A stretch of DNA of 64,000 nt from Massalongia carnosa (lineage: Eukaryota): contig OZ287072.1 of the NCBI GenBank assembly GCA_965645245.1, positions 2,604,001 through 2,668,000 on the forward strand, written 5' to 3'. The notes under the pieces were generated by a model that was not told the origin of the DNA, searched no databases, and was given only the letters and a program-made list of their open reading frames with translations. This document shows positions 24,084 to 58,000 of this stretch, piece after piece (position 1 is the stretch's first letter; each line of letters starts with the position of its first letter). The translations under genes and the position numbers were made by a program.

Positions 24084-24276
24084 GAATCCCATTGAGAATC
24101 TCTGGCGTATTATCAAAATACGGGTCAGTGCCCGTCGTCACCAAATCCATACAATTGAGGCCATGGAGCAGGCTATTCGGGAGGAATGGGAGCTGTTGAC
24201 TGAGGAGGACTTCAGACGGTGCATTGAGAGCATGCCTGAGCGTATTTGCTTTCTTATTAAGGCTAAAGGGGGTTCT

Positions 24277-30859: not shown

Positions 30860-31168
30860 CTTTTAGCGAACTATGCCTTCTGTGAAGAGGCATGTCCTGT
30901 GGTCATCCCCCCATACTGTGCCACGAAGGCTGACTCGAATCAAAGTTCCCACAAGATTCATCGACCTTGCAGCAATTCAGGCATTTAGGGTTAGCGATAG
31001 GGATGAGGATCGTTACATTACCTTGGGCCTAGGAGGTGGCCGAAAGGTTGTTGTCTTCCGTCAGAGACTCCGTATTAAACTGCTATGGGAGCAGCCGCAT
31101 AATCACCATCCAACATCATCCCATCTGCAAGCGCCGACCTTTTTTGGCGTCGATAAAGTTGCCGTGAG
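30860..31168 (+). pseudogene. Possible HET-domain gene relic interrupted by Copia
   Basis: VPTRFIDL...RYITL resembles the PTRLID..Y.ALS lead-in of HET domains; very decayed. Confidence 0.3.
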
Positions 31169-34100
31169 TGTCAAACCTGAATGTGGTCGATTCTCATCGC
31201 CGATCCTCGACCCCCTGTCGCGGCAGATGCCGCTAAGCTACGCCATTTCTTCCACACCTTTACCCCTCAATTTGCCGGGGTTGATATCGTTGCTGCCATG
31301 ACCCCTTTTCCTTTCTATATAGGTAGCTAGATGTGGGCATTTCCCACATACAGAAGACAGCCTTTTTCATCCTTCCTGAATTCATGTGAAAGGTTGACAG
31401 TTATGAGCCCGGGTTAGCTGAATTTTTCGCTGCCTCCGTCTTAACTTTAGTTATTGGTAAGCTGATTTATCGCTGCCTTTATCGACCCCGAAATATCCTA
31501 GGCAGGCTGAGTATCGCCGCCGGAATTATCGTATCTCTCATGGAGCATCGCAGAGTTGATTTATTCCTCGTGCTTCTGTTTTCCTTTGCCTTTTTGGTCG
31601 TTTCCCTGTTTTTCCCATCTGTCTCCATCTTTGGTCGGTTATCCCAAATGGAAGACTACTCGTCGGGATCGTCTCGGAAACTCATCGTCTCGGCTCTGAC
31701 GCCTAGGACCTACAATTCCTGGTTGTCGGAAATCAAGGGTATCGCAGTACGATCTCAGGTATGGGAGTACGTCGATCCGGAAGGATCAGAATCGGAACCT
31801 ACCATTCCCAAATTTCCCAAATTCAGTGATTACGTCAAAGTCGTCCCGGTTAATACGCCTGGCACTGACTCTACCAATATCCCTACGCCTGCTATTGTCG
31901 CTTCTCAAGGTTCTTCTCAAGGGACAGTTCTCGGCGATTTAAATGGCCCGCCGGTCCTGATTCCCGAACCATGTTCTCGGTATGCCGATCTCTCGGAATC
32001 ACAGAAGGAGTCGTACAATGCAGATGAACGGTCACATCGAGGGCTTCAGGCAGATGCCAGGGCCGCAGCCATGGGAATTGAGAAGGTTCATACGGTCATC
32101 CTAGAGTCGGCTAAAGATTATGTCGCCAGGAATGTCAGATCATCCTCGGTTCGAGAAATTCTTCAGTCCCTGGCCCATAAATTCAAAAAGAGTCCGGACG
32201 AAGTTCAAAGGCAGATCGATCGCCAATACGACGAGTTGAGAAATTCTCACCCGGTGAAAGGGAAGATCGAATCTTGGATCTGCCAATGGGAAACGCTGAG
32301 GGAAGAAATCGTTGCTTTGAAAGTTGAACCCATCTATAGTGAGTATATCTACACTCAGCACTTTCTGAAAGCCGCTCGGATATGGGCACCATTCTTTTGC
32401 GACACCTGGATCAAGATACGAAATGTATCAGGTCGTCCCCTTAAATTCTTCGAGGCCGCCAATGAGTATCGGACCGAGATAGAAGAAAATGCAATCAGCA
32501 CTGGTCGTCGTCAGCAGCTCTCGGCGAATTCCGCTTCTCTACAAGGACAGTCTTCCGATCGGGGAAATTCCACTTCTGACGATAGCAAGTACAGCAATAA
32601 CGAATGCCTTTGCGGCGAAACTCACTCCTGGAAAAGATGCCCTTATTTGACAGTCGAGTCTAGAAGCTCGGGATGGAAATTCAATAAGGAGATACGCGAC
32701 CACATCCGACAAAAAATCGGGTCCAATTCCAAGCTTTATTGGTATGTCAAACGCGCCGCTACATCCGACATTCTCAACGGCATCTCCGAGCCTGATGAAC
32801 CTTTGAAACCTCGAGGAAGAGGAAGAGGTGGAGGTCGAGGGGGTCGCGGAGATGGAGGTCGTGGCCGAGGCAATGGCAATGCTCCCGCCGAGCTCCCTGT
32901 TGTCGAGAATGCTCCAGTCTCTTTTGGAAATACTATCTCGGATCGCGACAATCTGCTTCATCTCAGCGTCTCCTACGACTCGGGATGCTCCAATCATCTG
33001 ACCTGGGACAAATCCCGTTTTATTGACGAAATCATCCCGGCATACGAGTGGGTCTCGACTCCCGACGGAGATCTCCTTATTGAAGGTTTTGGGACAATGT
33101 TGGTGAATGGGACACTAAAAGGGAAGAATCAGCCTCTGCATTTTCGACACACAGCATACGTTCCCGACTCATCGGTGACTTTGATTTCGGTCAGCAAGCT
33201 GAAAAAGGATGGATTTCTGTGGAACATGCATACGGACACGGTCGAGAAGAAGGGTATTTCAATCTTCGAATTGGAAGAGCATTTCGGTCTCTACACTGCC
33301 GAGTATCGTCCCGTTGGCCACGCTGGTGCTTTCGCAAATTTCGTCGGTTCCCGAGTCTCGGCAGATGCCATCCCAAAAGGCACGCCATGGAAATTTCATC
33401 TCCGCCTAGGACATTGCCAACCGGAAGTCATTAACCAGTTGTCGAATCAGAAGATGATTGAGATTTCAAGAGGTAACAGTGGTCAAGATGCTCCAAAGAC
33501 AGTGAAATGTGAGACGTGCGCATTGTCAAAAATGCATACACTAGTATCAAGGGTCTCGGCTACTAAAGCCACTAAACCATTCCAGCGTCTTCATTTTGAC
33601 CTCATTATTTTGAAAAGGACTGCTTTCGATGGGACCACCTGCGTCGCTCATTTTCAGGATGATTTCACCTCGTTTCATTGGGTCTTCCCCCTGCAAGATC
33701 ATAAGCAGGAGACACTACTTAGGATTGTCAAGCATGTCATAAATCGGTGCGATCGACTCGGAGCCGAATTCGGTCTTTTCGTTCAGACCTTTCGAATGGA
33801 TCAGGAAACGTCGGTTGGAGACGTCATTCAGGACTTCGTCAAGGAACAGGGAATCGCGTTTGAATGGTCCGCAAAGCATACTAAGGAGCAGAATGGGTCG
33901 GCTGAGAGGGCAGGAAGCCTTTTGACTCAGAAGGCTAGATGCATTCGCATCGGCGCCGATTTGCCAGAAGATCTGTATCCCGAGTGCTATCTCGCTGCTG
34001 GACACTTGCTAAATAGGACGCCGACAAAAGGACTAGATTGGAAATCGCCTCACATCTCCCTGCACCGAGCCCTGAAGAAGCCATACAATTCCGAAATTGG

Positions 34101-36995
34101 TCATCTCAAGGTCTTTGGGTGCAAGGCATATCCCCTTTTGAAAGGTAAAGATGCCCCGCCAAAAAGTGAGAAACTAGCCCCTCGAGCATTTGTTGGCTAT
34201 CTGGTCGGATACGATTCTACAAACATTTATCGAGTCTGGAATCCCGAGACCTGGTCGGTCAGCGGATATAGAGATGTTATCTTTGATGAGGATCAAACCT
34301 TCTCCACATACGTCAAAAAGGATCTGATTCCCGAAGAGAAGGTGGCCGAGTTTGTAGAGCTGGAAGTTTTCGATGCTGCTCCCTACATTGTTGATTTGGC
34401 AGAAAATGAGGAGCAATGGCTGGCGACATCTGTGCGCAATCGGTCATTTGCTGATCCTTCTTCGTCGGTTGAAAATTCGTCCGCACTGGATGTGCCCGCG
34501 TCGTTGACTGCGAAAGACGTCCCTATCATGCCGAGACATTCACCGAGTCAGCAGCATCTTCCGACTCCCGAGAGCACTCCGCCTCCATCGACTTCAGCAC
34601 CTGCACCTACATCTTCTTCGTCAACATCTCGCGACAAACGGGTGGTAAAAGACAGTCTTCCGAGTAGCATAGATCTACCGACTGATCTGCCAGAAACCGG
34701 CCGGACGCCTCTCGGCATTGCCGAATCTTTTGGCACCGGTCCCAGTAGGAATATCGGATCTGCCAAATTGGATGTCAGCAATATCGTCGAAGGAAAACGA
34801 GTCAGAAAACCGAAGCAGAAATTCGCAAATCTCGCAGCACCTCTCGGCATCAGACCACTCGGCATCGCTTCGGAACCACTAGGGAATACAAACTCGGGAT
34901 TGGATGACGGGATGAAGGAAGTTTATTTGGCATTTGCAGTGACCACTAGGTCGACCAGATTGCATAGGGACAGCCTGCCGCCGCCGCCGAAGCAGTGGCG
35001 AGGTATGCTTCGACATCCCCATGCAGAAGGATTTCGCAAAGCAGCCGAATTTGAATATCAGACTCTTCTCAGAATGGACACCTTCGTCGTCATTCCCAAA
35101 ACTTCCAATCAGAAGCCGCTTCCACTAATGTGGGTATTTACATACAAGTTCGACCCGGATGGCTTTCTAGTAAAATACAAGGCACGCCTGGTAGTCCGAG
35201 GGGATTTGGAAGAAGTCTCGGCGGAAGATGTATACGCCTCTACGCTGGCAATTAAGATCTTCAGGTGCCTCATGGCCCTGACGTCTGCTTTCGGACTCAG
35301 GACAAGGCAGTTTGACGCGATCAATGCCTTCCTAAATGCCAAAGCCGATAGGGTCATCCACGTGTACATGCCAGATGGTTTCGTCATCGAGGGGAAATGC
35401 TTGCTCCTGGTCCGGGCTTTGTACGGGCTTCGAAAATCGCCTCTACTATGGCTACGAGAATTTTCCAAAGCACTCACCTCATTGGACATGCAGCAGATCC
35501 CTGGCGAGCCCTGCCTTTTTACCGACTACTCTGGCATCATCCTCTTTTTCTATGTGGATGACATAGTCATCATCTTTCCGGAAAGTAGAGCTGCAGACGT
35601 AGATCTGCTGATTCAGAAGTTGAATGCTCGATTTGAATTACGCGACATGGGCCAATTGAGCTTCTTTCTCGGTGTACGGATTGTTCGAAATGCTGGCGAC
35701 ATTTATCTTTGTCAAGACTCCTACATGGACAAGTTGGCAATTGAATACGAGATAGACACGTCTAAATCTCCGTCATCCCCGCTACCGTCAGACTTCATCG
35801 CATTCACCTCTGCCTCGGCAGCTAGCCCAGACTCGGACTCGCCTCGGTCAGTCGACCAATCCCTGAGGCAGGAATATCGTAAAAGGTAGGATCGATCTGC
35901 TATCCCGCGAATATCACTCGGCCGGACGTTGCCAAAGCTGCCTCCAAATTGGCAGAGCATCTCACCTGTCCCGGTCTGGAGCATCTAGACGCGGCAAATC
36001 ACTGCCTGCAATATCTACACGCGACTAAGTATCTGGCGATAAAATACTCACCCTCGGGAGGTGGCGAGCTTACCGTGCAGTCTCCGGATGATGATCAGCT
36101 CTCGGCAAAGCATGTCTTCGAAAACACTGCCGATGCCAGCTTTGCAAATAGTCCGAGCGACGCAGCTACGAGGGTTTCACATTCAAGCTGTATGGCGGCA
36201 TGATCGACTGGGCTGCCAGGAAGCAGGCGACCGTCTCAACTTCGACGACAGAGGCAGAATTGCTTGCCCTTCTCCATGCCGGCAAGGCATGCATCTGGTG
36301 GATTAATTTCTTTGGCAAGCTGGGATTCGACTACGACCATTCGGTCAAAATCTACAATGATAACATGCAGACCATCCGCATTCTGACGTCGGAACAGCCC
36401 AAAGTTACCACCAAACTTCTGCATGTAGACATCGCTCAGTTGTGGTTGAGACAGAGCGTTCAATTTGGTCATCTCAATGTGGGTTATCTACAGACCAACC
36501 GGATGACGGCAGATGGTCTCACCAAGCCCTTGCCTCCGCAAAAGCATCGTTCCTTTCTGGAAATGCTAGGCCTTATTGATATCAAGTGTCTGATTTAGGA
36601 ATGGGGCAGGCGGGAGTGAACCGGGCGGAATTCCTCTCGGCGGGCAGAAATTTCTTTTCACTGGCATCTCATTTTGATTTTGCAAGAATTGCACCTTTTT
36701 CTCGAATCGGAATTGCTTCATGTTTTCTTCTTTTGGTCAGGATGCTTCGCATCCTGGGGGGGTGTGTCAAACCTGAATGTGGTCGATTCTCATCGCCGAT
36801 CCTCGACCCCCTGTCGCGGCAGATGCCGCTAAGCTACGCCATTTCTTCCACACCTTTACCCCTCAATTTGCCGGGGTTGATATCGTTGCTGCCATGACCC
36901 CTTTTCCTTTCTATATAGGTAGCTAGATGTGGGCATTTCCCACATACAGAAGACAGCCTTTTTCATCCTTCCTGAATTCATGTGAAAGGTTGACA
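31169..36995 (+). mobile_element. Full-length Ty1/Copia LTR retrotransposon
   Basis: 231-bp LTRs 31169-31399 and 36765-36995 (no difference seen), TSD GTGAG, PBS GTTATGAGCCC (copia-type internal tRNAiMet site), G-run PPT at about 36756-36762. Confidence 0.95.
31648..36598 (+). CDS. Copia gag-pol with two apparent 1-bp deletions near 35884 and 36154
   Basis: CLCGETHSWKRC, YDSGCSNH, HLRLGH..CETC, YKARLVVRG, FYVDD. The RNase H (ADASF, STTEAE, ADGLTK) continues in shifted frames (ORFs 35949-36203, 36200-36598). Likely start MEDYSS at 31648. Confidence 0.85.
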
Positions 36996-37766
36996 GTGAG
37001 TGAGTGGCTCAGGGTTTCCGAACAGCAAATTCTTTGTGGAAGGGATGTGGGCATTACCCAGAGCTGACCAAATTCCCTAGGGACACAGGATCCTCAAATG
37101 CTTCGGCCTTCTTGATCCTTTGAGCATTGGGGTATCGTATGATGCACTATTGTGGATGAATAGATCACTAGAGACGTGTCATTTCCATTCAGAGGAGAAT
37201 GGTCAATGGCGAGATCAAGTTCTGCGGAGTAGTGAGAGACCTCTCGTAGATGCTACGCTATACTGTTACACAAATCGATGCAACCTCTTACTGCGAAGTA
37301 AGAGCGGAGAAAATATCTTGATTTTGATTATTTATCTCATATATCAATTTTTCGTTTCTTTGACAGCCTACACAGTAGCACACGTAATTCTCGATCTCGA
37401 GATCTCTATATTTATAATGTAACGGGTGGGCAATAGAAGGCCTACTCAAGTGGTGGTGATGATGGTCTTGATGGCTAGCTAATAGCTATGCTAAATAAAC
37501 AAGACGAACACAAAGAAGAAAGCAGCAATTGCTGCAGAGATTTTCTTACAACTCCTTGATCCCTTTACTAACCTTGATGAGGTTAGCTTCCCGCTAAACC
37601 CAATGCGCTACCTCCCGCGACGCTAAATGTCGGGGGTATCGCTTAGCAATCTTAGCAACCTTCTTGTGATTACCTTTCCTAGATTATCCTTATTCGCACC
37701 ATGACAGTAGCTCCCTCCTTCAGGCCTGATTCCACGCAGGCATAATTGCTTCATGGTTGGTGTGAG

Positions 37767-40700
37767 TTATCGGGGCTTTTCTGGATATCGTCGGTGAAAG
37801 TCTGCTACTCTTTCGTTGGCATTGATGACGTACTCTGCGTACTCCCAGGTGGGGTCGTTCCAACCGATCCACTGCACCAGATACTTCAAGCGATTCCGGA
37901 ACTTCTTAGAATCGAGGATATCCTCCACTTCATACTCCTCTTCGCTGTCAACTTCGACTGGTGGAGGAGGAGGTGGAACGTGATCAGGGTGAGGATCTTG
38001 AGGCACGGGCGAGAGAAGAGATACATGAAACACGGGATGAATCTTCATGCCGATGGGGAGATCGAGTCGATACGCATACTTGCTTACCACATTAGATATC
38101 TTGAATGGGCCTAGATTCTTCCAATCGAGCTTTCGAGCGGGTCGTTGTGTACGTATGTTTTTTGTGCTTAGCCATACTGCGTCTCCTACTTGATAAACCG
38201 GTGCTGGCACGCGATTTTCGTTGGCCCCTGCTTCGTATCGTGCTTGCGCGAATCTCATTTCCTCTTGCAGCACGATCGTGATATCTTGCATTTTCTTGGC
38301 GAATTCCCCTGCGTTCAAACTGGCCGGGGACCTAGAGGGTTCCATTGATTCAAATCCCATACGCGGGTGGTATCCCATCTCCGCAAGAAAAGGGCTGCAC
38401 CCAGTCGTTTCGGACACGACATTGTTTCCTGTAAATTCCGCCATGGGCAACCAATTTGCCCAGTCACCCTGAAGATAATCCGTGTAACTGCGAAGGTATT
38501 GTTCCATGGAGGCATTTACTCGCTCCGTCTGCCCATCTGTTTCTGGATGGAAGGCTGTCGACAGAAGACTCTTGATTCCCAACCCTTGACACAGCTTTTT
38601 CCAAAACTCCGCCACGAAAAGCACTCCTCGATCTGATACAATGGTGCTTGGTAGTCCATGGAGTTTCCAGATATCCCGAAGAAAGAGCTCAGCCAATTCT
38701 TGAGCGTTGATTGTAGTGAGACATGAAGAGAAGTGACCTCTTTTCGACAGACGATCGATCACGACCAGTATAGCGTCGAATCCATTGCTTTCCGGCAGTC
38801 CAGTGACAAAGTCCATTGAAATATCTTGCCAGCGACGCTCGGGAATGGGCAGTGGTCTGAGAACTCCCATTTTCCCTTGACGAGATGATTTGCTTCGTGC
38901 GCATACTTGACAGTGCTGTACATACTTCGCTACGAACTGATAAAATCGAGGCCAGTAATAGTGGCGCTGTAAAAGATCAAAGGTCTTAGCTCGGCCGGGG
39001 TGACCTGCCACTGGACTATCATGAACAGACTCGCAGAGCCTCATTTTCAAAGCATGAGAGTCGGGAACGAACATTTTCTCTCGATAGTGTAATCGACCGT
39101 CGATTTCGGTGCATTCCGCTAACGAGATATCCTTGGAGTGCCTTGCTCCTGACCGCAACAGGTTCAGTATCTTGACAGGGAAAGGATCATTTTTCAGAGC
39201 CTCCTGCAATAGTTCTTCCAATGTCTTGACTTCCTCTTGATCTGAACCTGATTCAATATCGTTCTCTTCCGAAGATTCCTTTGCTAACCCGTTCGCTAGA
39301 AGTTCAAGATTTCGAGGTTTCAAGACCGTTTGATGTTGGATCTTCACTCGTGGATCATCCCCCCCCTCAAGTAGGTCTTGAGACCTTCTGGTAAGGGCAT
39401 CGGGCTTTCCGCCACTCTTCCCTGGGCGGTACACAATCTGAAAATCAAAACGAGAAAGATATTTGGACCAGCGTGCTTGCCTTCTACTCAATTGCTTCGT
39501 TGTCATGAAATATTCCAGATTCTTATGATCGGAAATTACTTGTATTGGAAATGCGGCTCCTTCGAGTTCAGCTCTCCATTCCTCAAAGGCACGAACGATA
39601 GCCATAAGCTCTTTATCATAAATCTCATAATTTACTTCCGCTGGTGAGTGTTTCTTTGAGAAGAATGCCACAGGTCTTAGAATTCCTTCGTCGTCATGTT
39701 GCGAGAGCACTCCCCCCACTACCCAATCCGAGGCGTCAACTTCTACAACGATCTTTTTCTCAGGATCAAAATGCATCAGAACAAGGTCGCTCATGAACGC
39801 GTCCTTTAATCTTTGAAATGCGGTCTCGCATTCCTGATTCCAAGAAAAGATCACACTCTTTCGAGTCAGCTTTATCAGGGGTGCGGCAATGGCGGAGAAG
39901 TTTTTGACGAAACGGCGATAGAAGTTCGCGAATCCTACAAAGGCTTGAATATCTTTAACATTCTTGGGCGTGATCCAGTCCTTGATGGTTTGAACTTTGC
40001 GAGGATCCATTCTTATTCCTTTATTGGAGATAATCAATCCCAAATATGTTGTCTCGGTGACGAAGAACTCGCATTTCTCAATGTCCAGTTGCAACCCCGC
40101 TTCTCGTAGAGCTGTTAAAACTTTTCTTACGTGGATACTGTGTTCTTTTCTCGATTTACTGTAAATCAAGATGTCATCGATGTACGCGGTGCAAAAGGCG
40201 TCTAGATATTCGCGGAGTACATCGTTAATGTAATGCTGAAAGGATCCAGGACCTCCAGACAATCCGAAAGGAAGAACATCATACTCGAAAAGCCCATATC
40301 TTGTTTTGAAGGCCGTCATCCATTCCTGTCCCTTCTGCATGCGCAGCTTATTGAAAGCCGCTACAATATCAAATTTCGAGAATATAACGGCTTTTGCGAG
40401 CCTATCGAGGGTCTCCTGAATCAGGGGTATTGGGTAGCGATTCTTTACGGTGATCGCGTTCAGGGCTCTGTAATCGACACAGAATCGCAGTCCGCCTGAA
40501 GGCTTTCGTGCGAACAATACCGGCGAGGAACAAGGAGAGGAACTGGCTCGAATGAATCCCTTGGCTAAGTTTTCCTTGAGATATTTCTGCAAAACTAAAA
40601 GCTCGGGAGCTGACATCTTGTATAGAGGACCCGAAGAAGGAACTGCGCCCTCCATCAACACGATCTTGTGATCGTATGAACGATGCGGAGGCAGTTTATC

Positions 40701-41858
40701 GGCCTCTTGTTTGGAGAACACGTCCAGGAGATCATGAAATTCCTCGGGTACTACGGTAGCAGGATCGATGAATCTCTTAGGTTTCAAGGATTTGGCCACA
40801 TCATCCAGAGATGCGGCTGCAAGGCTGAGGTTGCTCGGGTTTTTCAAGGCTTGTATGGCTTTTTCGATCTCGTACAAGGACGCAATGAAGATTTCGTTCT
40901 TTCGATCCTTCATCAGGGTGGAAAATGGCGCGGCTCCTATCATACAGATTTTCATGGGCAAGGCGCTGGACTTCTTAAGTTCTGGGACGAGACTCGGAGG
41001 CTGAGAGTGTTCAGTGTACTTGGTGATTTTCGGGGGTTCAAGACGTGAACTCGGGACTCGGATCATGGGCTCGGGATGTTCAATAAACTCGATATGTTCA
41101 ATAAACTCGGTGGGTTTCAAGAATTCAGGATTCGCGTGAGAGACCATGTTCTCACGGATTTCAAGAGGGTCAAGACGCACTGAGGAAGCAGACTCCGGGG
41201 GAGGAGACTCTTCGGAAAGATCAGAAAGGCCAGGAATAACAAGAGGGACGTGTTTATTCTCTAAACACTCCAGACGACAATACGAGGACGAGAAGGTCAA
41301 AGTATTTCGAGACCAGCTGACGAAAGGGTCGTGAATTTGAAGCCATTTGACTCCCAGGACTACCGGATAGTGACCCAACTGGGTCACAAGGAATGAGCCG
41401 TGCTCGTGATGCCCGTTGACGTTCATCTTCAACTTGGCCAGGTGTGTGAGCATACCAGCCGCGGCTGGTCGGCCGTCCACAACTTCGAGAACGCGAGGGC
41501 GGACAAGGGGGGTGAGAGGCAGGGAATTTCTTTGCGCGAAGGACGAATCAATGAATGCATAGCCAGAAGCGCCGCAATCTATTAATGCATGTGTGTGTAA
41601 AACGCGATTTTCTACAGAGAGTTCTATGGATACGACGAAATGTCTACCATCTAACGAGTCTTCTGATATGGAAAAAGCCGAAATTGACACAGGAAATCCT
41701 TCCGTCGGTCTTCGAGAGCGACTTAGCTCGAAGACACAGCGTTTTCCGTCGACTCCGCAAGGGTAGACTCGTTGAGTCGTGACGGCTTGGGTTTCTTCCC
41801 TCGTGCCAGTTTGGGACAGTTGGCCGCAAAGTGCCCGGACTCCCCGCAGTAACGGCAC
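37767..41858 (-). CDS. pol: Gypsy Pol (protease, RT, RNase H, integrase, chromodomain), overlapping the end of gag and probably expressed by frameshift
   Basis: [47 protein letters not shown], and C-terminal EYEVEDILD..YLVQWIGW..PTWE chromodomain. Confidence 0.95.
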   Translation of the reverse strand: MPLLRGVRALCGQLSQTGTREETQAVTTQRVYPCGVDGKRCVFELSRSRRPTEGFPVSISAFSISEDSLDGRHFVVSIELSVENRVLHTHALIDCGASGYAFIDSSFAQRNSLPLTPLVRPRVLEVVDGRPAAAGMLTHLAKLKMNVNGHHEHGSFLVTQLGHYPVVLGVKWLQIHDPFVSWSRNTLTFSSSYCRLECLENKHVPLVIPGLSDLSEESPPPESASSVRLDPLEIRENMVSHANPEFLKPTEFIEHIEFIEHPEPMIRVPSSRLEPPKITKYTEHSQPPSLVPELKKSSALPMKICMIGAAPFSTLMKDRKNEIFIASLYEIEKAIQALKNPSNLSLAAASLDDVAKSLKPKRFIDPATVVPEEFHDLLDVFSKQEADKLPPHRSYDHKIVLMEGAVPSSGPLYKMSAPELLVLQKYLKENLAKGFIRASSSPCSSPVLFARKPSGGLRFCVDYRALNAITVKNRYPIPLIQETLDRLAKAVIFSKFDIVAAFNKLRMQKGQEWMTAFKTRYGLFEYDVLPFGLSGGPGSFQHYINDVLREYLDAFCTAYIDDILIYSKSRKEHSIHVRKVLTALREAGLQLDIEKCEFFVTETTYLGLIISNKGIRMDPRKVQTIKDWITPKNVKDIQAFVGFANFYRRFVKNFSAIAAPLIKLTRKSVIFSWNQECETAFQRLKDAFMSDLVLMHFDPEKKIVVEVDASDWVVGGVLSQHDDEGILRPVAFFSKKHSPAEVNYEIYDKELMAIVRAFEEWRAELEGAAFPIQVISDHKNLEYFMTTKQLSRRQARWSKYLSRFDFQIVYRPGKSGGKPDALTRRSQDLLEGGDDPRVKIQHQTVLKPRNLELLANGLAKESSEENDIESGSDQEEVKTLEELLQEALKNDPFPVKILNLLRSGARHSKDISLAECTEIDGRLHYREKMFVPDSHALKMRLCESVHDSPVAGHPGRAKTFDLLQRHYYWPRFYQFVAKYVQHCQVCARSKSSRQGKMGVLRPLPIPERRWQDISMDFVTGLPESNGFDAILVVIDRLSKRGHFSSCLTTINAQELAELFLRDIWKLHGLPSTIVSDRGVLFVAEFWKKLCQGLGIKSLLSTAFHPETDGQTERVNASMEQYLRSYTDYLQGDWANWLPMAEFTGNNVVSETTGCSPFLAEMGYHPRMGFESMEPSRSPASLNAGEFAKKMQDITIVLQEEMRFAQARYEAGANENRVPAPVYQVGDAVWLSTKNIRTQRPARKLDWKNLGPFKISNVVSKYAYRLDLPIGMKIHPVFHVSLLSPVPQDPHPDHVPPPPPPVEVDSEEEYEVEDILDSKKFRNRLKYLVQWIGWNDPTWEYAEYVINANERVADFHRRYPEKPR

Positions 41859-42952
41859 AGCCCCTCGTTCATACGACGAGTTACTTCCGCCGAGGATAAC
41901 TTGCCTCGAGAGAAGGCGGAGAGGTCCATGGCGTCTGGAGGCGAGGCGGGAGCGGCAGCGGCGGGGGAGAAGGTTCGGGGTAGGGCAACCCCCCCAGACG
42001 GAGGGTTACGAAGTGTGGTCCCCGCATCAGAAGAAGATGGGGCGGACCGGGGCGAGTAGGCCTTCCGGAGCAGGGCATTGACATTGCGCTGGCGAGTATC
42101 TAGCCGTTGCAGTAACGAGATCAGCTCGTTGAGGTCCTCCGGGATCAGCTGCGTTACCATTAGCTGTTGAAATTCTTCGCTGATACCTTGTTGCAGGGCA
42201 GCGCGTTGAGCTTCCTCATCAAAATTGGTGTCCGGGGCGATGCGTTGGAAATCTGCTAAGTACACATGGAACTCTCGATTTGCCTGACGAAGGGCACGCA
42301 GCTCACGCTGCGCGGTGGCCTTTCGGTCAGGGTCCCCGAATGCACGTTCCAACAGCACCAGGAGGGACGGTACATCCGGCAGAGAGATTTCGTGCTGTGA
42401 CTTGACATACGGTTGTACCTGGGAGAGCGCACGCCCCTCCAATCGGCTGATAGCATAGATGAGTCCTGATTTTTCTCCGGTGAAGCGGTCTTTATTGACG
42501 AAAAGTTTCAAGTGCAGTTGGGTTGTCCAGGAACGTAAATCCTCCTTCTTTCCCGAGAACTTGGGAATATCCGGGAGTCTCTCCGATCGGGAGTCTGCGT
42601 GGCTGATGGGGGATGGGTGTCCGCGAAGGCTGATGATCAAGGCTCGAGCCGCGATCAGCTCGTCATTGGAGTCACGCAGCTGACGGCGGATTTGATCACG
42701 CTCCGATTCTAAAGACTCGCACTGACTCGTTTTTATGTCCAGGGAGCTCGAGAGGGACGTGATCTGATTGGCAGCTTGAATAGAAAAATTGTACCACTCG
42801 TGGGGAAATTTCTGGATCGAGTGGCTCCAAGCATCAGGCGTGATGACGTGAGGAGCAAGAGAGGCTTCGTTTTTGAAGTCCGGGGGGGGAAGATCGAAGG
42901 TCTAGCCTTCGGAGAGAGAGGTAGATGCCTCGGCGGAGAAGCTGGAGGCCAT
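41723..42952 (-). CDS. gag: Gypsy Gag (410 codons) with an in-frame TAG at codon 17 (42902-42904)
   Basis: Frame is open from ATG 42952 (MASSFSAE..) except for that TAG; knuckle CRYCGESGHFAANC. The ORF track shows only 41723-42640. Confidence 0.85.
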
Positions 42953-44470
42953 CCTTTTCGGGAGAAGGACCTGGGGACGAAGGACCACTTGAGGTATGGG
43001 GGAGGTGTTCGTAATGTAACGGGTGGGCAATAGAAGGCCTACACAAGTGGTGGTGATGATGGTCTTGATGGCTAGCTAATAGCTATGCTAAATAAACAAG
43101 ACGAACACAAAGAAGAAAGCAGCAATTGCTGCAGAGATTTTCTTACAACTCCTTGATCCCTTTACTAACCTTGATGAGGTTAGCTTCCCGCTAAACCCAA
43201 TGCGCTACCTCCCGCGACGCTAAATGTCGGGGGTATCGCTTAGCAATCTTAGCAACCTTCTTGTGATTACCTTTCCTAGATTATCCTTATTCGCACCATG
43301 ACATATAATATCATTCGGCCTATTGCTCATGTGTTATGCTCATTATGCTTAAATACAAATCATAATAGCGACCTGTCCTGTGGTCCCATGTTTGACATTG
43401 TTCTAGATGTCACTGAATATTTTAGCTAATTGCGCAGAAATAAATGGGCATATCGGCATATGGTCTACATTGGACTGCGGTTAATTTGTGTTACATCGAC
43501 GCCCGGAGTTATTGCTTTCCTGTTTATTCTTGTTGACGTCTTGCTTCCCCCTTCGTTGCTAGCATCTAGATATATTGGGAAACCATTTACAAGGTTTTCT
43601 TTCTTGCGCCGTCATATTTTCACCATAGTCTCAACACTCAAGATCTCTCGCGATAATAAAGCGAATCCTGGCGATTTACGGCAGAAAGTTTGTTGATTTC
43701 AAGAATACGTTTTTCTGATATCAACCAGAAAGGTCTAAAATATAATCTTTGTAGCACGTCGACCTAGATAGAAATCTAATAGGGACTATGTACGAAAACT
43801 AGTAAGATGAAGAAAGAAAGCTATGTACAGATCGCCGGTCAATAAACTCTCATACCCGTGCTAAGCCTGATGCAGGTTTTCATCACCGTCGTTAAACTGC
43901 TCATACCACGCGTGTTAATAATGTCGCTACAAGCAGTGCTAAATCCGTTTTCGGTTAGATAAGGTGAATAGCACTACGTCATGTGTTGCCTGAGGTTAGA
44001 GCATTGTAATCCGTGACAATCTTCTGAATCAATCCTCATCATCATCAATCATGGATTCTTTTTATTTAATTGATTATTCGTCTCCAACTAATATCAATGA
44101 CATGCTACGATTATGGGAGGAACTGGGACAGTATTTGATCATACAAGAAGAATAAGCTCCGTCTTTGGTCAATAATTCAAGCAGGTCTTTGCTTTTTTTT
44201 TGACAACCCTTCCTGACTGAGGTAACACTAACATGATACAGTCGACTGCAAAAGGTTGGTCGCGACCCTGAATTTGGGACCACACATCAAATATTTACGC
44301 GAAAATGGCAAAATACCGGCAAAAATCTGAAAACTACCCTTACCGCCTACATGCCAATGAAGTCGTACTACTGGTCAGTTTTGAAGCGATTTGTAGATTA
44401 GTATATGTAGATGCCATTCCCCATATTTTTTCCCTCCCCCCTCTGCCATTCCCCATTTTTTATCTCAGAT

Positions 44471-46636
44471 ATGAAACTTCGTGAACCGAGAGCAAAAAGA
44501 TCAAATTCCGGCCCCCCCCCCGGCTGGAAAAGAGCCTTTCAAAGGTAAGAGAATCAAACTGACTTTGGGAGGGCCGAGAGCCAGAGCCATTTTCGCCGCC
44601 GGCATCGATGAAGCCTCGCCGGAATCAACGTCGGCCCCTCCCAAGCCAAAGCCTCCCCTCAAGTCAAAGCCCCCCTTCAAGCCAAAGGCCCCCCTCAAGC
44701 CAAAGGCCCCTCCCAAGCCAAAGGTCCCTCCCAAGCCAAAGGCCCCTCCCAAGTCAAAGGTCCAGCCTCAGCAGTCAAAGACTTTCGAATCGAATTATTA
44801 TAGTCCCCTTGTCATTACGGAGGATTCCTCCGACGACTGGACGGATGAAGACGAGAAGCAGAGGTGGCAGGGTCAGTGGAGAAAGGAGAACGCGATGAAA
44901 GCTGTAGATGCCGAAGATGATGCCGAAGATGATTCCGAAGATGATGCCGAAGATGATGTCGAAGATCTCAATGTGCCTAGTAACTCGATTGTCAGTAAGA
45001 AGTCTAGAAAACCAAGAAGAAAGGAACCCTCCCGTTTATCCCCTTCGCCACTGCCTCCGACGGTAATCAAATATCTACTAAATGTGAAGATGTCGTATGA
45101 GAAGCACGTCGTTTTCGAGACGGTGATTTCATACGAAGTCAATTCAACTACGTCGAAAAGATTCTTTTTGAGAAGCTACACCGGGGACATGAGTTTGAAA
45201 GCCGAGACGTATGCGAATTCCAAAATGTATGCTTGTTATTTGGTCGATATCAAAGCGACCGTGTTATGGAATGGAATCAAACCGCATGAAAAATCAGCTC
45301 TCATGTTAATCGAATCCTGGCAGCCCATTGAGGAGGTTCTAATTCATTTAGAAGACAGCAGCATTCGAAAGAAAAGCTTCCGGTTGATCTTATTTTCAAC
45401 TTCAGTCGTACCAAAGATGGCGTCATTCCTCCCGATGATCCTATTGCTGCTGCCACAGCTGTCGCCACCAAGAAATTGGGAACCGCGACCATGAAGCTGC
45501 AAAAAGAGATGGAGGAACGAGCCATGTTGCAAGGCATGACGGCCGAAAGAATGTCCGAATTGCAAAGTCTGCATCTCTGTGAAAAACGCCCATGTAGGAA
45601 TTTCGGACAGTACTGTTGGAATGATGAGACGAAGAATCAGCATTATCCTCTCAACAGTGCTCATTTCGTGACCTGGAATAAAGCACTAGATGATGGAATT
45701 TCAGGCGTTGATTCTCGAACATCTCTACCGAAGATCAGAGAGAATTTATTCTCCCTGAATAAAGGTAAGAAAAAGACTGAATCATCATCTCCAAAACAGG
45801 AAATCTCGTCTCAGGAAATGCCCTTTGGAGGTGGGCATTCCATTTTTCAACATCCCATGTATCAACACCACTCGTACCAAATCCCCCACTCGACATTTCC
45901 CCCCTCGTCATTGGCATTTCCCTCGACATTTCCCTCGGCATTCCCCTCGGCATTTCCTCACTCGGCATTTTCCCCCTCGGCATTTTATCCTTCTCAGTAT
46001 GCTCCTTCTACATTACCTGACTCGAGACGAGCCCGTGAGGAAACGCCGTTGGATTGGAGAGATTCGAGATCATCCAGAAGCAGTCGAAGCGTGAGTCGAT
46101 TTCTCCCTCTCCCCTCCGTCGCCCGCAGCAGTCCAGTGGAAGAAGATCTGGAAGACTATGTCAGTTGGCTCGTTCAAATGAAGCCTCATTTGAAAGGAGT
46201 GCTCACCAACACCTGCGATCGATTGATGGAAGGTGGGTACGATCTGATGACCGTTCAATCCTTGAAAGGCATCGAGCATCAGACGTTCTGGCAGGAGCTA
46301 GGAATTCGTCCGGGAATCGGGATTCAACTGGCGCGAGACGTCAGTAAATTTGGAAGAGAAATGTCTCGGCAAATGCCTTTGCAAATGTCTCGACAAATGT
46401 CTCGACAGATATCTCAGCAAATGCCCCCGCCTCCCCCTCGGCGTCAACGCCATTTACCGACATCGCAAATGGCCACTCAGGCGGTCACTCAGGCGGTCAC
46501 TCGGGTGGATAAGGGGATGGAGGATGGGGAGGTGGACGGGGGCGGGGAGGTAGGATCTGGAGTGAGAGATACAATTGAGGAAGATGAGACGCATAGTCTA
46601 GAATATGATTATGCCGAAGATGAAGATGAGGATTAG
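44471..46636 (+). CDS. Transposon-borne accessory protein: PK repeats, acidic tract, Cx4Cx6Cx8H motif, C-terminal SAM-like helical domain; one frameshift near 45370
   Basis: ATG 44471; a 40-nt GTAAGA..CTGAC..CAG intron (44545-44584) puts it in frame with ORF 44481-45494. A shift in the A-run near 45370 joins ORF 45476-46636 (CEKRPCRNFGQYCWNDETKNQHY; WQELGIRPGIGIQL). Confidence 0.7.
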
Positions 46637-46651
46637 ATACTATGTATCTAA

Positions 46652-47207
46652 TCAGATTGAAATGGTTGGATACTGAATGCCAGCCAATCTAAATAAATTT
46701 CCCGGGTCTCCCATTCTCAGATCTTTGACTGCATCCCGAAGAAATTGTCCGAATCCCCCATACTCCTCCGTGTACGAAAGACTCATTTCTCCATTCCGTC
46801 GAATCCATGCCTTTAGCAATGCAAACGACGTTTCAATTGGATTGAAATCTGGAGAATAAGGAGGTAGTCGTGCCAAGGTGACGTTGGCTGTCTCGCACAT
46901 CTGAATAAGCTCCTGATTCCAATGAATGCTGGCATTATCTAGTACTAAAACAGATCTAGGACCTCCATTGGCAGTCGTCTGAGGGAGAACATGATTTCGA
47001 ACGAAGTAATTGACTGATTTTACGAGGGCGATGTCCAATTGATAATTGAGGTAGAACCACATCTGCAAAATGAGTCCAATTACGTCTCATTCGTTGAATC
47101 TGTCTGATGCCAACAGCAGTGACAGATGCAATTGTCTTAGTGTTGTCACCTCGTACAAAACGAAGCGTGATTGTCTCACGAAGGGTCTCACTGAGAGGGG
47201 GAGGCAT
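46652..47207 (-). pseudogene. Internally deleted DD34E transposase
   Basis: N-terminal HTH-like part (MPPPLSETLRE..GHRPRKIS) is fused out of frame to VLVLDNASIH..LPPYSPDFNPIE; first catalytic D region missing. Confidence 0.85.
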
Positions 47208-48749
47208 TTTAGGAAAATGGCAGAGGAGAGAGGGAAAAAAGACGGGGAATGGCATCTACATATACTAATCTACAAGTCGCTTCAATACTGACCAGTAGTA
47301 CGACTTCATTGGCATGTAGGCGGTGAGGGTAGTTTTTCGGATTTTTGCCGGCATTTTGCCATTTTCGCGTAAATATTTGATGTGTGGTCCCAAATTCAGG
47401 GTCGCGACCAACCTTTTGCAGTCGACTGTAGGGCGATCAAAAACGAAATCGTTATTATTGAGAATAGAATGGCCCTGCGAATCATGGGTAATCCCATATT
47501 TGCGTAGGAGGCACGTTTTGCAAAGCGCTTGAATCTTGTAACGAATGAGATTGCGCTTTTCGTGATCGAGGCTCGATGTAGTGGCAATTTATATCATCAA
47601 AAAATGATTCGTTATGCTTACCCATAATAGGGCAGGAAATAATGGGGAGGCCAATTCCGCAAATGCCAATTTTGCCTAGTGTCCATCAACAAAAAGCCGG
47701 CATGTTGAAACAGTTCTCCCTTGTATGGGAAGTGGCAGTAGGACAATAGGCCCATGCAGACACAAAATGGGCCAATTTAATCGCTCCTGAACAAGGCCGC
47801 GTTTTCGAGCCAGATTATTCGAATGGCGTGAAGCGACCTTTCCACCGCATCGACGCGCGGTACTGGATCAGCTATGCACGCCTCGACAATTGGAAGAGAT
47901 TTGGGTGCGTCAGAATCCATGGGATGATCAGATATAGATGTGGGAGGAGGATATAGATCATGAGGCGAACGGATCGGACGAATAGGAAAAGGTGGGGAAT
48001 GGAGAGGTTAGAGAGAAAGGAGGCGAGCAGTATGTGAGGGAGGGGTGGAGGGTTTGGTGAGGTTATTGAGGCTAGCGGGGATGGATCGATCTAATGCTTG
48101 AGAACTAGTTATGAAGCTTTTGAAGATTCTGTGCCACTCTGCAGTGCCATTTTTTATCGGCTTGCATTGATCTCATCCGCTCACAGCACTACGTCTAAGA
48201 TGTCTTTCCCGTTCAGGAGTCTCGTGACCCATAATCGGAGCCTATAAAAGCAGCAGAAAAGCATTAGAAAAAGTGGGGGCGAGAATGATAATGAGTAGCG
48301 TCAGCGTGCCCACTCCTGGTGACAGGTCAGGGGAGGTGTCTATCACTAGGTAATTGCCAAGCTTCGATTATTATCTAGGAATAATGAAACCTTTAGGTTA
48401 AAAGGAAAAGACGGTATAAATCTAGAGGATGTGATACATAATAATAACCTAGAAATTCCATCAAGAGGCGCATGTTTCAATTCATTTTTTTCCCACGACA
48501 TAGCTTCTTGTCGGCTTTTTGCTTCAGCGTTCTGTCGAAGGATACAGCTAACCAGTGCTTGCTTGAGTAGTTCCTGATTATGCCGCTTCTTAGCACGATC
48601 TGGTTGTGCTTGTCGCTTCGCTCGCTCGACTTTGCATGTCATCATTTCATTTGAGTTACGGACCTAAGCACAGCTCGGAAGGTTAACATGTTTAACTCGG
48701 ATAAAATTTCAACCGAAAATCGATTTGAGAAAACCATTGATAATGCTTG

Positions 48750-53715: not shown

Positions 53716-55053
53716 CAGTCCCGTGTCAAAAGTTTCCGACTCTACCCGCGATTTTCGTGATTTCGCGTTTTAACCTACCAACCCATCAACTTTGACCTCA
53801 TCATTTCACCATGCCACGCACTCCGTTGACTTCAATTTCTGGTAATAAGCCTCGTAATACCGAATTGAATCAATGTCAAAGAGGTATGATTATTGGAGCC
53901 CAGGCGTTGGGGCATGCACGGGCCGAAATTGCAAAGACATTAAATGTGCCTCGAACCACCGTCATTTACACTCTTCAAAAGCACCCAGAACGCAACAACG
54001 AAAAGTCCAAATCGCGATCGGGTCGGCCTGGAATACTTTCGAACCGCGATCGAAGACGTATTATCAAACTTGCGCGAATCAATCCACGCATCACCTACGC
54101 GCAGCTGCGTACGGAGGTTGAGGTGCAATGTAGTCGATCCACTCTCTATCGGACGCTCAAAGACTATGGTCTAACAAACTGGCTGGCTAAAAAGCGACCT
54201 TTATTGACGCCCGAGGTGGCAAAGAAGAGACTGGACTGGTGCTTGCTTCGGCGTGAGTGGAATTTTGAGCAGTGGTCAAAAATAATATGGTCAGACGAGT
54301 GCTCGGTGGAAAAGGGGTCGGGAAAACAGCGTCAATGGGTGTTCAGGTTTCCGGACGAAAAATGGAAAAAACCTATGATACAACCGTACGGCAAAGGAAA
54401 AGAGGTTAAGGTCATGGTATGGGGGGCTTTTTGGGGGGGGGGGAGGTCGGATCTTTACAAATTGGCCCGCGATTTCGAGGCAAAGAAGATGGGGTACTCC
54501 GCGAATTCATATTTGGAATTATTGAACGATAATCTGCTTGGAATTTGGGAACCAGGTCTCATTTTCATGCAGGATAATGCCCCCATTCACACTGCCAAAA
54601 AGGTGAAGAAATGGTTCGATGAAAACGGTATAACAGTCATCGATTGGCCCCCTTATTCTCCTGATTTGAATCCCATCGAGCACGTTTGGTACGTGCTCAA
54701 AAAGCTCGTCTACCAGGTCAATCCGGACATCGACTCGGTGACTGGTGGTGATGATAGGGTCCGCGAGGTACTTTGGAAAGCTTTGGAAGAAGCATGGGCC
54801 TTGATAGATGAGGAAATGCTGAAGAGTTTAGTAGACAGCATGGAAAGGAGGATTGAAGCTTGCATCCAGTCAAAAGGATGGTATACGAAATATTAAAAAT
54901 ATATTTCTCAGCCCAATGTACTTGCTATAATGTATGTAATCATCGTACGAAGTTTCAAGACATCAAAATAACAACTTGATAGTTGATAATTCAAAGCAGT
55001 GGGGGGGTAAAAAGTTGATGGTGGGGCTGTCGGAAACTTTTGACCTAGTACTG
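53716..55053 (+). mobile_element. Tc1 element (1338 bp), apparently intact, inserted 13 bp inside the MULE left TIR
   Basis: TA flanks (53714-15, 55054-55); TIRs CAGTCCCGTGTCAAAAGTTTCCGAC / revcomp CAGTACTAGGTCAAAAGTTTCCGAC. Confidence 0.93.
53811..54896 (+). CDS. Tc1 DD34E transposase, 361 aa
   Basis: HTH region with RSGRP, IWSDE, MQDNAPIH, WPPYSPDLNPIE, C-terminal GWYTKY. Confidence 0.95.
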   Translation: MPRTPLTSISGNKPRNTELNQCQRGMIIGAQALGHARAEIAKTLNVPRTTVIYTLQKHPERNNEKSKSRSGRPGILSNRDRRRIIKLARINPRITYAQLRTEVEVQCSRSTLYRTLKDYGLTNWLAKKRPLLTPEVAKKRLDWCLLRREWNFEQWSKIIWSDECSVEKGSGKQRQWVFRFPDEKWKKPMIQPYGKGKEVKVMVWGAFWGGGRSDLYKLARDFEAKKMGYSANSYLELLNDNLLGIWEPGLIFMQDNAPIHTAKKVKKWFDENGITVIDWPPYSPDLNPIEHVWYVLKKLVYQVNPDIDSVTGGDDRVREVLWKALEEAWALIDEEMLKSLVDSMERRIEACIQSKGWYTKY

Positions 55054-58000
55054 TATGGACACCCCATCCGCTACCTAGCCACACCCTCTCCGGCTACCTA
55101 GACACACCCCTTCCGGCTATCTAGACACCCCACACAAAAAAATACTAGGGGTAGGGCTGGACCCCTCCCTAAACCTCATTAGGAAGCCATCTTCCTCGAT
55201 CAGGATAAGTGACGTAAATTCTTCATTTTCTCATCTCAATTTTCAGTTTCCTGATCCTACATTCTGGATCAATCATGCCTCTATTACCTCCCGCCGACGG
55301 GCAGTCTTTCGAAACTCTAGAAGACTGTCTATTCTGCCTGAATCGACATGCCGCCCCTGAGGGATACACCGTTGTCCTGCATCGTACCAAGAAATCAAAG
55401 CTGGGAATTCGTCGAAAAGCGTGGATCATCTGCGATCGAGGTCGCAAGGCCAGACCGCAAGGCGAAGAACGACGTCACAGTAGCAGTAGACGAATTGAGT
55501 GTCCCTTTTCCTGCATCGCTACCTTCGTGAACGACGTCGCCTGGCATTTGGAAGTAGTCAAACCGGAACATAATCATGAAGCTAGCTTGAGTGGAGCACA
55601 TCCCGCGCATCGAAGAATCGCCTTGATCGAGCATAAGGAGGAGATTTCTCGTCAATTGACTGTACATACAAACCAAACCGGCCAACGTGCTGTCGAGTCT
55701 TCGTATTGGAGCTCCGACTCCGAATTCGGTCAGATGGGATGAGAATGGCAATCCTGAAGTCGTCAATCCGATGTTTAGCAGTCGAGACATCTACAACTTA
55801 CGAGCTCAATTGCGACGAAATGCTTTGGGCTCATTGACTCCGATACAGAGTCTGATTCAGGAGTTTGACAAGGGCGACTGGGTATACGAGTTGCAGATAA
55901 ATGATGAGAATCAGGTGAGTTTGACAAGGACAGGATAACTGAAGTTGCAGACTAATGATGAGAACCAATCAGATCGTCAATCTTTTTTTCAGTAAATGCA
56001 GTACTCAGACTCTTTTGAAGGCAAATCCGGAAGTTTGAGTAATGGATTGCATCTACAAAACTAACAGATTCAAAATGCCTTTGTTGATCATCGGCGGACA
56101 GACCGCATTCCATACTACGTTCTATGTCGCCTTCTGCTTCATGCATGAGGAGACAAATAAGCCTTACATCTGGGCCATGACTCGTTTGAAAGTCTTGTAC
56201 TCGCAGCTAGAACTTCCTTCTCCAACGACGACAGTCACCGACATGGATAGAGGTTTGATGTCGGCAATTGAGCTGATTTTTCCATCTACCAGTCATTTAT
56301 TGTGTATCTGGCACATCAATAAGAATGTCCTAGCTCATTGCAAGAAATCATTCAGTACTGAGGCATGGGAAGTCTTTTACGGACGATGGAAATCACTTAT
56401 TAAGGCTGATTCCGAGCCGAATTTTGAAGAGATGTGGGGATAGTTTCGAATCACATACAATCGTACATATGCTGATTTGGTAAAGTATCTTAATGCCACC
56501 TACATTTCTTTTCGTCAGAGATTTGTAAAGTGCTGGACTGACCGAGTGAGGCATTTCGAGACAACGACTACTTCACGAGGTGAGGGCGGACATGCTGTAC
56601 TGAAAAGGCAGCTGGGAACCCCCAATGGTGACTTAAAAGCAGTCGTAGATGGCGTCGCCTTGCTACTAACCAATGAGCTTCATAATCACCTCATCGCCAT
56701 CAATTCGGCTAAGGATCGCTATCCTACCGACTTGCGCAAACCGATTTTCCAACGTTTGGCGAGTCCAGCCCTACCCCTAGAATTTTTTTGTGTGGGGTGT
56801 CTAGATAGCCGGAAGGGGTGTGTCTAGGTAGCTGGAGAGGGTGTGTCTAGGTAGCGGATGGGGTGTCCATATATCAGTACCCTCAATATATACCTGCATT
56901 CTTGTCAGCATGCGAAGAACAAAACAATACACGAACAGCATGAACAAATCTGGAGCTAGATGAGAACGGTTGTTTCAAACGATGTTCTTTTCGTCATTGT
57001 CGTTCGGTGCTTCAGTGTGATGGTACCGCTTGCAAGACATCGGACGGGCTTGTGATCTTGTCTCTTGTTACTCAAGACGGTAACAACCAGGTATTGGAAC
57101 TGGCGTGGGCATTGGTCCCAATCGAGAACAAAGATAACTGGATCTATTTTTTACGGGCAATGGCATTATATATTCGATTTCGCTCGGGACGACAAGCGGT
57201 GATTATTAGTGATCGCAACAAAGGTATCAAACATGCAGTATCTGATCATTTCCCTGTCGCTTTAAGTGCTCATTGTTGCAAACATCTCGGAGATAATGTC
57301 GATAAAAAATGGAAGAAGACATATCGGAATCTTTTCTGGGATGCGGCCAAAGCTAAAACACAGGCAAAATTCAACACTATACTCAACAGAATTAGAGCGA
57401 CGAGACCTAATTGCGCGGGCTATATTGAAGACATACCTTCAGAGCAGTGGGCTGTATATGCTTTTCCTCGTCCTCGATATGGTCAATTATGTTCTAATGC
57501 TCAAGAGTCGCAAAATAATATTTGGCTGGAGGCACGTCATATGCCAGCATTGCTTTGTCTCCATCAGATTTGGAAATAATGCATGGACAAACTTTATGAA
57601 CTGCACAAGCTTGAACACAAGACAGATAGAGTCACTGATTATGCCTGGAGATGGATTCAAGATGGACGGAAACAATCGGCCGAGTATACTGTTCAAAATT
57701 CTCGTCCTTTCTGCGGTATCATCACTACTAGTACTAGAAGTCATCACATCGTGGATCTAGAAGTCAAGACGTGTACTTGTCATGATTTTCAGGATTATGA
57801 TCATGCCGTTGCGTTGTGTATGAAGCAAGAAAGAGAATCAGAGGATTTTGTCAGTCCCATCTTTACAATCGCTGAGTACAAGGCAACATAACAGTCATTT
57901 TTACAATCTATTGATCTCAATGTTCTCGCAGCGGCCGATGTGAAACCACCAGAATTTGTAGTCCAGGCTGGTCGCCCAAAATCAGACGTGAGAGAAGAAA

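Follow-up and report, generated by a model that had tools for sequence, protein, structure and literature searches.

Second proteins serve the MuDR, CACTA and Harbinger elements, and in MuDR of maize the two genes mudrA and mudrB are arranged convergently between terminal inverted repeats (TIRs) of about 200 bp that lead into both of them; the transposase is there of the Mutator type and the target-site duplication 9 bp long. Fanzor-carrying IS630/mariner elements also hold a second gene beside an IS630-type transposase. Autonomous IS630-Tc1-mariner elements usually contain one open reading frame (ORF), and a single gene is what the accessible part of PMC8533490 gives for known members of the Tc1 family (DD34E). 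Yeast Dici elements, as described in the available portion of PMC13469147, have TIRs of 8–33 bp and carry, next to a transposase of 473–477 aa, extra coding sequences, namely an orphan of 143–146 aa and a relic transposase. In the ciliate elements Tec and TBE a DD34E transposase is likewise accompanied by extra ORFs, with three ORFs per element and a recombinase in Tec (excerpts of PMC7325037). In Pyrenophora tritici-repentis, a 3.4-kb Tc1/mariner element termed “Osmo-CC transduplication” occurs in 46 near-identical copies, 31 of them with both ORFs; its second ORF, located between the TIRs, was read as a captured host Osmo-CC gene, transcripts were reported and a similar pair exists in Alternaria (Manning et al., 2013; accessible sections of PMC3538342). 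Here, a 64,000-nucleotide stretch of Massalongia carnosa (GCA_965645245.1, contig OZ287072.1, forward strand, positions 2,604,001 to 2,668,000; hereafter the window) was analyzed, which contains at 44239–47428 a two-gene element of 3,190 bp encoding an IS630-like transposase and, convergently, an accessory protein (gene 2). The two-gene architecture of the lineage represented by this element has almost certainly been inherited together over long times.

The element differs from MuDR in its IS630-like transposase and its TA duplication, and from the Fanzor-carrying elements in that its gene 2 is without RuvC or TnpB domain. TIRs, TA duplication, DD34E triad and DDE_3 domain are shared with the Tc1 family, from which it is set apart by its two genes; the true Tc1 elements of this genome (1.35 kb, TIRs of 27–38 bp) differ from the two-gene families and fall outside the gene-2 clade. 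Compared with Dici, the lineage shows longer TIRs (150–212 bp), a shorter transposase (about 330 aa) and one partner of 600–800 aa, and in contrast to the ciliate elements nothing recombinase-like was found in gene 2.

In the window copy (Table 1), TIRs that match at 95% over about 212 bp, TA on both flanks, start codons 20 bases past the left TIR (44471, plus strand) and 8 bases past the right one (47207, minus strand), and convergent genes with 15 bases between their stops (46634–46636 and 46652–46654) agree with a first-pass annotation made from the letters alone, which had described TIRs of about 210 bp, each with an ATG within about 20 bp, and stops 15 bp apart. The internal transposase deletion it had noticed amounts to 489 bp, absent between 47007 and 47008 by comparison with sister copies, so that the winged helix-turn-helix (HTH) and the first catalytic Asp are lost together with a GT-AG intron of 58 nt. 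Its description of the partner gene as near intact had to be given up: gene 2 carries two frameshifts here and is therefore broken, the first by one extra C (10 C) in the run 44512–44521, the in-frame length of which is kept in 12 of 16 compared copies, and the second, a −1 shift, by a G missing after 45380 that is present in the other 15 copies. The intron of 40 bases placed at 44545–44584 was rejected as well, since it would merely offset the extra C and the stretch encodes residues conserved in a second family of the genome (family B, see below); it is a frameshift artefact, because the sister copy L004 reads gene 2 as one frame of 725 aa. Pfam searches gave no match above cut-off for the plus-strand frames and a DDE_3 match for the minus-strand piece. 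The window copy is a non-autonomous, decayed member of a fungal cut-and-paste transposon family. A TATAT stretch lies at the inner end of the left TIR, as does a pyrimidine-rich run close 5′ of the gene 2 start, and the TIRs may, judging from their position, be the promoters of both genes. Each TIR of this family (family A) also has an upstream ATG in frame with its gene (44411 and 47255 regions), which is probably unused because family B is without an in-frame one on the gene 2 side.

The DNA search for family A covered the 52-Mb genome in 25 contigs, and 40 of 45 candidates were scored, so that the counts are a lower bound. At least 125 DNA matches were found. Of 30 fetched loci, 17 keep both ends, the window copy included, and the 16 others, the full-length copies that the first-pass annotation had recommended to look for, span 3,646–3,683 bp, which makes this a family of about 3.67 kb. 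These 17 copies represent 16 sites, because two have common flanks; TA stands on both sides in 15 of them, and the median divergence is 1.3%. Heavy repeat-induced point mutation (RIP) was not seen in family A: C>T and G>A together account for 215 of 493 changes in all contexts. Copy L004 has gene 2 as a single 725-aa frame, the only unbroken one among the 17, and its transposase matches DDE_3 and HTH_33. At the L004 site, a joint skipping 3,685 bases, i.e., the element plus one TA, occurs in four of four sequencing runs; the L004 flank is itself repeated, and the joint therefore shows an empty-site form and not a strain polymorphism. No joint across the transposase intron was found in the four runs. 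The element is present in runs under two organism labels and two studies.

The same layout was found in three other families of this genome, although the TIRs of families A to D are unrelated in sequence between families. Family B (eight loci fetched, 98–99% alike) is 3.6 kb long, with TIRs of 210 bp and a gene 2 of 48% identity to that of family A; family C is 3.5 kb long, with TIRs of about 155 bp and a gene 2 of about 33% identity over the core; family D is 3.7 kb long, with TIRs of about 150 bp, an intronless transposase and a gene 2 that is a remote homologue (profile probability 98.6%, E 5.9e-16). In all four, no more than about 70 bases separate each TIR from an ATG of the gene behind it. 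The distance between the stops is 15 bases in families A and C and 51 in family B; the transposases of these three contain a presumably spliced GT-AG intron at the same place, of 58 nt in A, 50 nt in B and 52 nt in C. Derivatives of family C of 2.6 kb have lost the middle of gene 2 and have a transposase stop in common (seven of the seven shown), and were therefore moved in trans. These derivatives (L048, L050–L058, L126, L129, L130) also hold an extra middle stretch that is absent from the 3.5-kb copies.

An ordinary single-copy host gene, named in the first-pass annotation as the outcome that would speak against a two-gene element, was not encountered: searches with three gene 2 proteins (85, 52 and 18 matches) found no stand-alone host copy in the genome, the matches coincide with copies of A, B or D, and the 25 distant ones that were fetched are family C DNA. 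As a control, 20 other DDE_3 loci were hand-picked from 150 listed. Six of them are family D (five with gene 2, one truncated), and the remaining 14 belong to three 1.35-kb single-gene Tc1 families, with TIRs of 27–38 bp where seen; none of these 14 loci gave a gene 2 match under E 1.

Purifying selection on gene 2 became apparent when families A and B were compared, the dN/dS check having also been proposed beforehand: the ratio is 0.25 for the whole gene, 0.07 for domain 2 and 0.08 for domain 3, while for domain 1, where silent sites are saturated, pN/pS is 0.38. The transposase exons gave dN/dS values of 0.03 and 0.18. Private changes within family A are neutral in both genes (pN/pS 0.85, 1.23 and 1.28), as expected after insertion. 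All four starred groups of the gene 2 tree, which holds 11 families, recur in the transposase tree; deeper forks are unresolved. A separate observation concerns the 3′ transposase exon (46646–47013), for which dS between A and B is 0.47 as compared to 4.8 for exon 1 and 1.4 for gene 2; this low dS suggests past exchange between A and B.

The transposase has 34 residues between the second D and the E. TIRs, TA duplication and a DDE transposase with N-terminal HTH, the latter seen in L004, are features of the IS630-Tc1-mariner group, whereas of the features of Tc1 proper only the DD34E spacing was found, and the Tc3-type second HTH, grouping with Tc1 and the single gene were not. The label Tc1 given in the first pass is hence right as to DD34E and not as to the domain set: the two-gene transposases have HTH_33 and DDE_3, the single-gene ones of the same genome HTH_Tnp_Tc3_2 and DDE_3. 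A 95/95 branch of the transposase tree (90/97 after removal of one long row and a relic) sets apart 12 gene-2 families and three rows of unknown gene-2 state; the IS630 row is next to this gene-2 clade, and the three true Tc1 families are outside. Both versions of this tree carry long-branch warnings and were built without reference rows for Gambol, Hiker and Dici, IS630-like DD34E groups which have DD34E and the TA target in common with the two-gene lineage; in such a tree the lineage is nearer IS630 than Tc1. On these sequence comparisons, the lineage is placed as an IS630-like DD34E branch, and as neither true Tc1, nor Fanzor, nor a recent capture.

Outside the genome, a profile of the gene 2 core (HMMER search of representatives) retrieved 376 clusters at 50% identity, 112 of them at E 1e-10, and many of the 376 are 600–800 aa long with the same three conserved blocks. 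Word-based protein searches returned only this genome's kind and one outside relative. Among 30 homologues looked up, three are from the ascomycetes Brigantiaea leucoxantha, Puttea exsequens and Trizodia sp., and 14 lie on contigs of 2.8–4.3 kb, approximately the size of the element, which is a weak hint. These named relatives, like the spliceosomal-type intron of the transposase, indicate that the genome is fungal. Atlas matches at 0.91–0.92 are unnamed clusters, mostly of Basidiomycota and Oomycota, and serve as a lead only. A split of gene 2 between domains 1 and 2 in relatives suggests an intron there. Gene-2-first scans confirmed nothing (viral contigs, none of 12 candidate stretches; metagenomes, none of 113), and the context of gene 2 outside this genome therefore rests on a metagenome scan that started from the transposase with two short patterns, and which for that reason cannot show that every gene 2 homologue sits in a transposon. 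It yielded 27 loci, 19 with gene 2 domains, always downstream of the transposase and on the opposite strand. By DNA likeness these 19 form eight families, spanning 2.1–3.2 kb, with TIRs of 39–156 bp in seven of them. Gene 2 is missing from eight loci: in five of them the sequence stops no more than about 300 bases from the transposase, two represent a prokaryote-type IS630, and the last is a degenerate relic that has no TIRs. Transposase scans of the viral and the prokaryote collection were negative (0 of 17 and 0 of 125). With four families in the genome, eight in metagenomes, purifying selection, matching trees and no stand-alone host copy in the genome, the bipartite IS630/Tc1-type lineage proposed at the outset is well supported.

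In the gene 2 protein, the Pro/Lys repeats and the acidic tract already noticed in the first pass are followed by three domains that an AlphaFold2 prediction on 150 sequences gives with confidence. Domain 1 matches PB1 in topology, and its best fold match, a PB1 domain (4mjs_A, Z 7.2, 85 aligned at rmsd 3.1), ties with a streptokinase domain at Z 6.7; no Pfam PB1 match was obtained. Domain 2 folds alone at a pLDDT of 91 and has near-invariant C, C, C, H and W residues. Its putative zinc site runs from C374 (45578) to H395 (45641). For this domain no clear solved match was found, VIA-align giving no Z of 5 or above, which does not prove a new fold. Foldseek found no match at E 0.001 for the gene 2 core or domain 2, and its top rows, bacterial superantigen beta-grasp domains, indicate fold likeness only. 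Classical CCCH zinc fingers are spaced C-x7/8-C-x5-C-x3-H. The spacing in domain 2 is a different one, C-x4-C-x6-C-x8-H, and zf-CCCH is absent among the Pfam matches listed for the 150 members; what the first pass had called a CCCH-type motif is thus present as a Cys/His motif of another kind. Domain 3, a predicted five-helix bundle, is in line with the SAM-like C-terminus described in the first pass: a tankyrase SAM domain (5jti_A, Z 6.2, rmsd 2.6, 61 aligned) is tied with a RAD51-paralogue N-domain (8faz_C, Z 6.4, rmsd 1.9, 56 aligned), a SAM_1 profile match (E 0.0044) was obtained in one of the 150 members, and there is an Atlas lead to SAM at 0.81. No Pfam family covers the gene 2 group of 150 homologues. 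As already read from the sequence, there is no RuvC; neither RuvC nor TnpB was detected in gene 2 by Pfam or fold, and Rfam gave no match. A Fanzor/TnpB carrier was accordingly rejected, none of the three predicted domains being RuvC-like.

Table 1. Positions, within the window, of the two-gene element, its genes and the predicted domains of gene 2.
Feature	Position	Strand	Basis
Left TA target-site duplication	44237–44238		TA read at site
Left TIR, about 212 bp	44239–44450	+	Repeat comparison
Gene 2 (accessory gene)	44471–46636	+	725 aa in unbroken sister copy L004
18-bp tandem repeats, Pro/Lys-rich basic low-complexity tract	44633–44763	+	Repeat detection
Acidic tract, 12-bp repeats	44810–44970	+	Repeat detection
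Domain 1, predicted beta-grasp (PB1-like), residues about 202–319, spans the −1 frameshift	45063–45415	+	Structure prediction
Domain 2, long helix, putative zinc site and conserved Trp	45470–45778	+	
Domain 3, SSPV motif and predicted five-helix fold, SAM/helix-hairpin-helix-like	46115–46378	+	Structure prediction
Transposase 3′ part, including the second Asp and the Glu of the DD34E triad	46652–47007	−	DDE_3, E 1.3e-15
Transposase 5′ part, about 66 codons	47008–47207	−	Comparison with sister copies
Right TIR, about 212 bp, leads into transposase start	47216–47428	−	Repeat comparison
Right TA target-site duplication	47429–47430		TA read at site

Regarding function, the first-pass annotation had suggested that the second protein aids transposition or counters silencing; the former is weakly favored by a complex prediction, and the latter received no support. 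The gene 2 core with the two transposase exons scored 0.57, the best of three controls 0.01, with a contact agreement of at least 16% and a partner pLDDT of at least 53, and the score dropped to 0.01 when the catalytic half of the transposase was replaced. In calibration, 51 of 78 solved pairs and 2 of 108 mismatched ones attained the mark, as did, among eukaryotic pairs, 39 of 65 solved and 2 of 126 unrelated ones; at scores of 0.60 or under it was attained by only 5 of 78 solved pairs and by all four mismatches that passed. We propose that each TIR would act as a promoter, so that both genes are expressed together, and that the gene 2 protein may bind its own transposase, probably at the catalytic half; its PB1-like and SAM-like domains could self-assemble as a scaffold and steady, tune or target the transposition complex, in the manner of the second proteins of MuDR, CACTA and Harbinger elements. 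Such a protein would act in trans, whereby copies with a dead gene 2, or with both genes dead, could still have moved. That the gene 2 protein is a helper of its own transposase we rate slightly short of an even chance. The wider proposal, a widespread fungal IS630-like DD34E clade moving by a two-protein machine, in which a co-evolving partner made of two self-assembling folds and a zinc domain lacking a solved relative binds the catalytic half and controls or targets transposition, is held a little more tentatively still.

Several observations weigh against the helper proposal. Gene 2 is absent from three single-gene Tc1 families of 1.35 kb that do well in this genome, and it is therefore no general need of DD34E transposition. 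Gene 2 is unbroken in only one of 17 copies of family A, with three stops common to copies, and changes common to copies give a pN/pS of 0.82 for gene 2 (23 vs. 8) as compared to 0.19 and 0.45 for the transposase exons (5 vs. 5); there is no sign of selection on gene 2 in the latest spread, the counts being too few for certainty, and this pattern, within the same limit of numbers, speaks against a need for gene 2 in cis. In one of the metagenome families, L078 (2.1 kb), the SAM-like part is all that is seen of gene 2. Moreover, none of the gene 2 fold matches reaches Z 8 or reveals a function, and the complex job used three chains and no alignments, unlike the calibration set; a pass of this kind is more often wrong than right unless the complex was likely beforehand.

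Among the alternatives, gene 2 could encode a family-specific, VANC-like anti-silencing factor that binds its own element or the transcripts of that element and shields the element from RNA interference (RNAi), DNA methylation or RIP, which we consider unlikely. A nuclear chromatin factor would be consistent with the basic and acidic tails, the putative zinc domain and the polymer-type folds, the rapid divergence in which the domains are retained and the occurrence of several families per genome agree with family-specific action, tail-to-tail stops 15–51 bases apart would yield overlapping transcripts inviting RNAi, and presumed epigenetic helpers, TET/JBP, are carried by fungal DNA transposons (PMC12730594, in its accessible part). 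However, chromatin, methylase and demethylase domains are absent in the 150 homologues, and the absence of heavy RIP is not owed to gene 2, because the single-gene Tc1 copies are as little mutated as family A. A host-directed adaptor, in which PB1-like and SAM-like domains meddle with fungal signaling, mating or cell death and so aid spread or persistence, is clearly less probable again: the closest structural matches are to PB1 and SAM folds, which fungal MAP-kinase adaptors use, but the matches stay under Z 8 and are tied with the streptokinase domain and the RAD51 N-domain, and within the sample covered the two genes diverge together, with no swapping between types of transposon. Improbable to nearly the same degree is a brake that binds the transposase or the TIR promoters, limits transposition, to the benefit of the host and of the family, which would persist longer; it would be compatible with the weak complex prediction and the spread of copies with broken gene 2, yet a trans-acting brake is hard to keep under such strong between-family purifying selection. 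Passive carriage of a host gene captured once by transduplication, the reading given to the Pyrenophora element (PMC3538342, as far as accessible) and one to which the unknown genomic context of most of the 376 homologue clusters lends some room, is very improbable and largely refuted by between-family purifying selection, 12 families with the same layout, matching trees and the location of every distant match followed in the genome within element DNA.

The lineage had been called possibly undescribed. The literature search, out of whose reach were Repbase and most subscription papers, found no description of the gene family, and gene 2 is not described in the accessible portions of PMC5751038, PMC12730594, PMC13004909 and PMC2836289; the label is qualified by the Pyrenophora two-ORF Tc1/mariner element, similar in size, which is in print (PMC3538342, accessible part). 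Osmo_CC is absent among the listed Pfam matches of the 150 gene 2 homologues and four family-D proteins. The Pyrenophora 3.4-kb element, compared by description only, may belong to this lineage.

The two-gene element lies within a transposon cluster, 0.9 kb beyond a young Ty3-type long terminal repeat (LTR) retrotransposon (37415–43303; 292-bp LTRs, 99.7% alike), which follows a young copia-type one with identical 234-bp LTRs (31168–36997). Inverted near-identical copies of another Tc1-type element lie at 22665–30330 and 61469–63253 (99.9% over 1,612 bp), and a copia-type element (223-bp LTRs) at 24277–30152 breaks up the former. At 53717–55055 (plus strand) a 1.35-kb single-gene Tc1 copy of one of the control families has an open 366-aa frame with HTH_Tnp_Tc3_2 and DDE_3. 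Furthermore, a fungal NLR-like gene occupies 11918–19215 (minus strand), with a patatin-like frame, NB-ARC and about 39 TPR units, the latter on a 126-bp tandem array with units 93–96% alike.

The IS630-Tc1-mariner group comprises the standard transposons with one gene, from which widely used gene-delivery tools derive. That a second gene of 600–800 aa has been retained in no fewer than 12 divergent families points towards a cofactor or a counter-defence unknown for this group, and the two-protein machine, if true, would give a transposase cofactor of its own to a superfamily believed to manage with a single protein. The 376 clusters of fungal “hypothetical proteins”, which no Pfam model covers, would find an explanation as transposon genes. 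This genome is a good test bed for the role of gene 2: it combines four two-gene families with young copies that show no heavy RIP, a copy in which both frames are open and, as controls, Tc1 families with a single gene.

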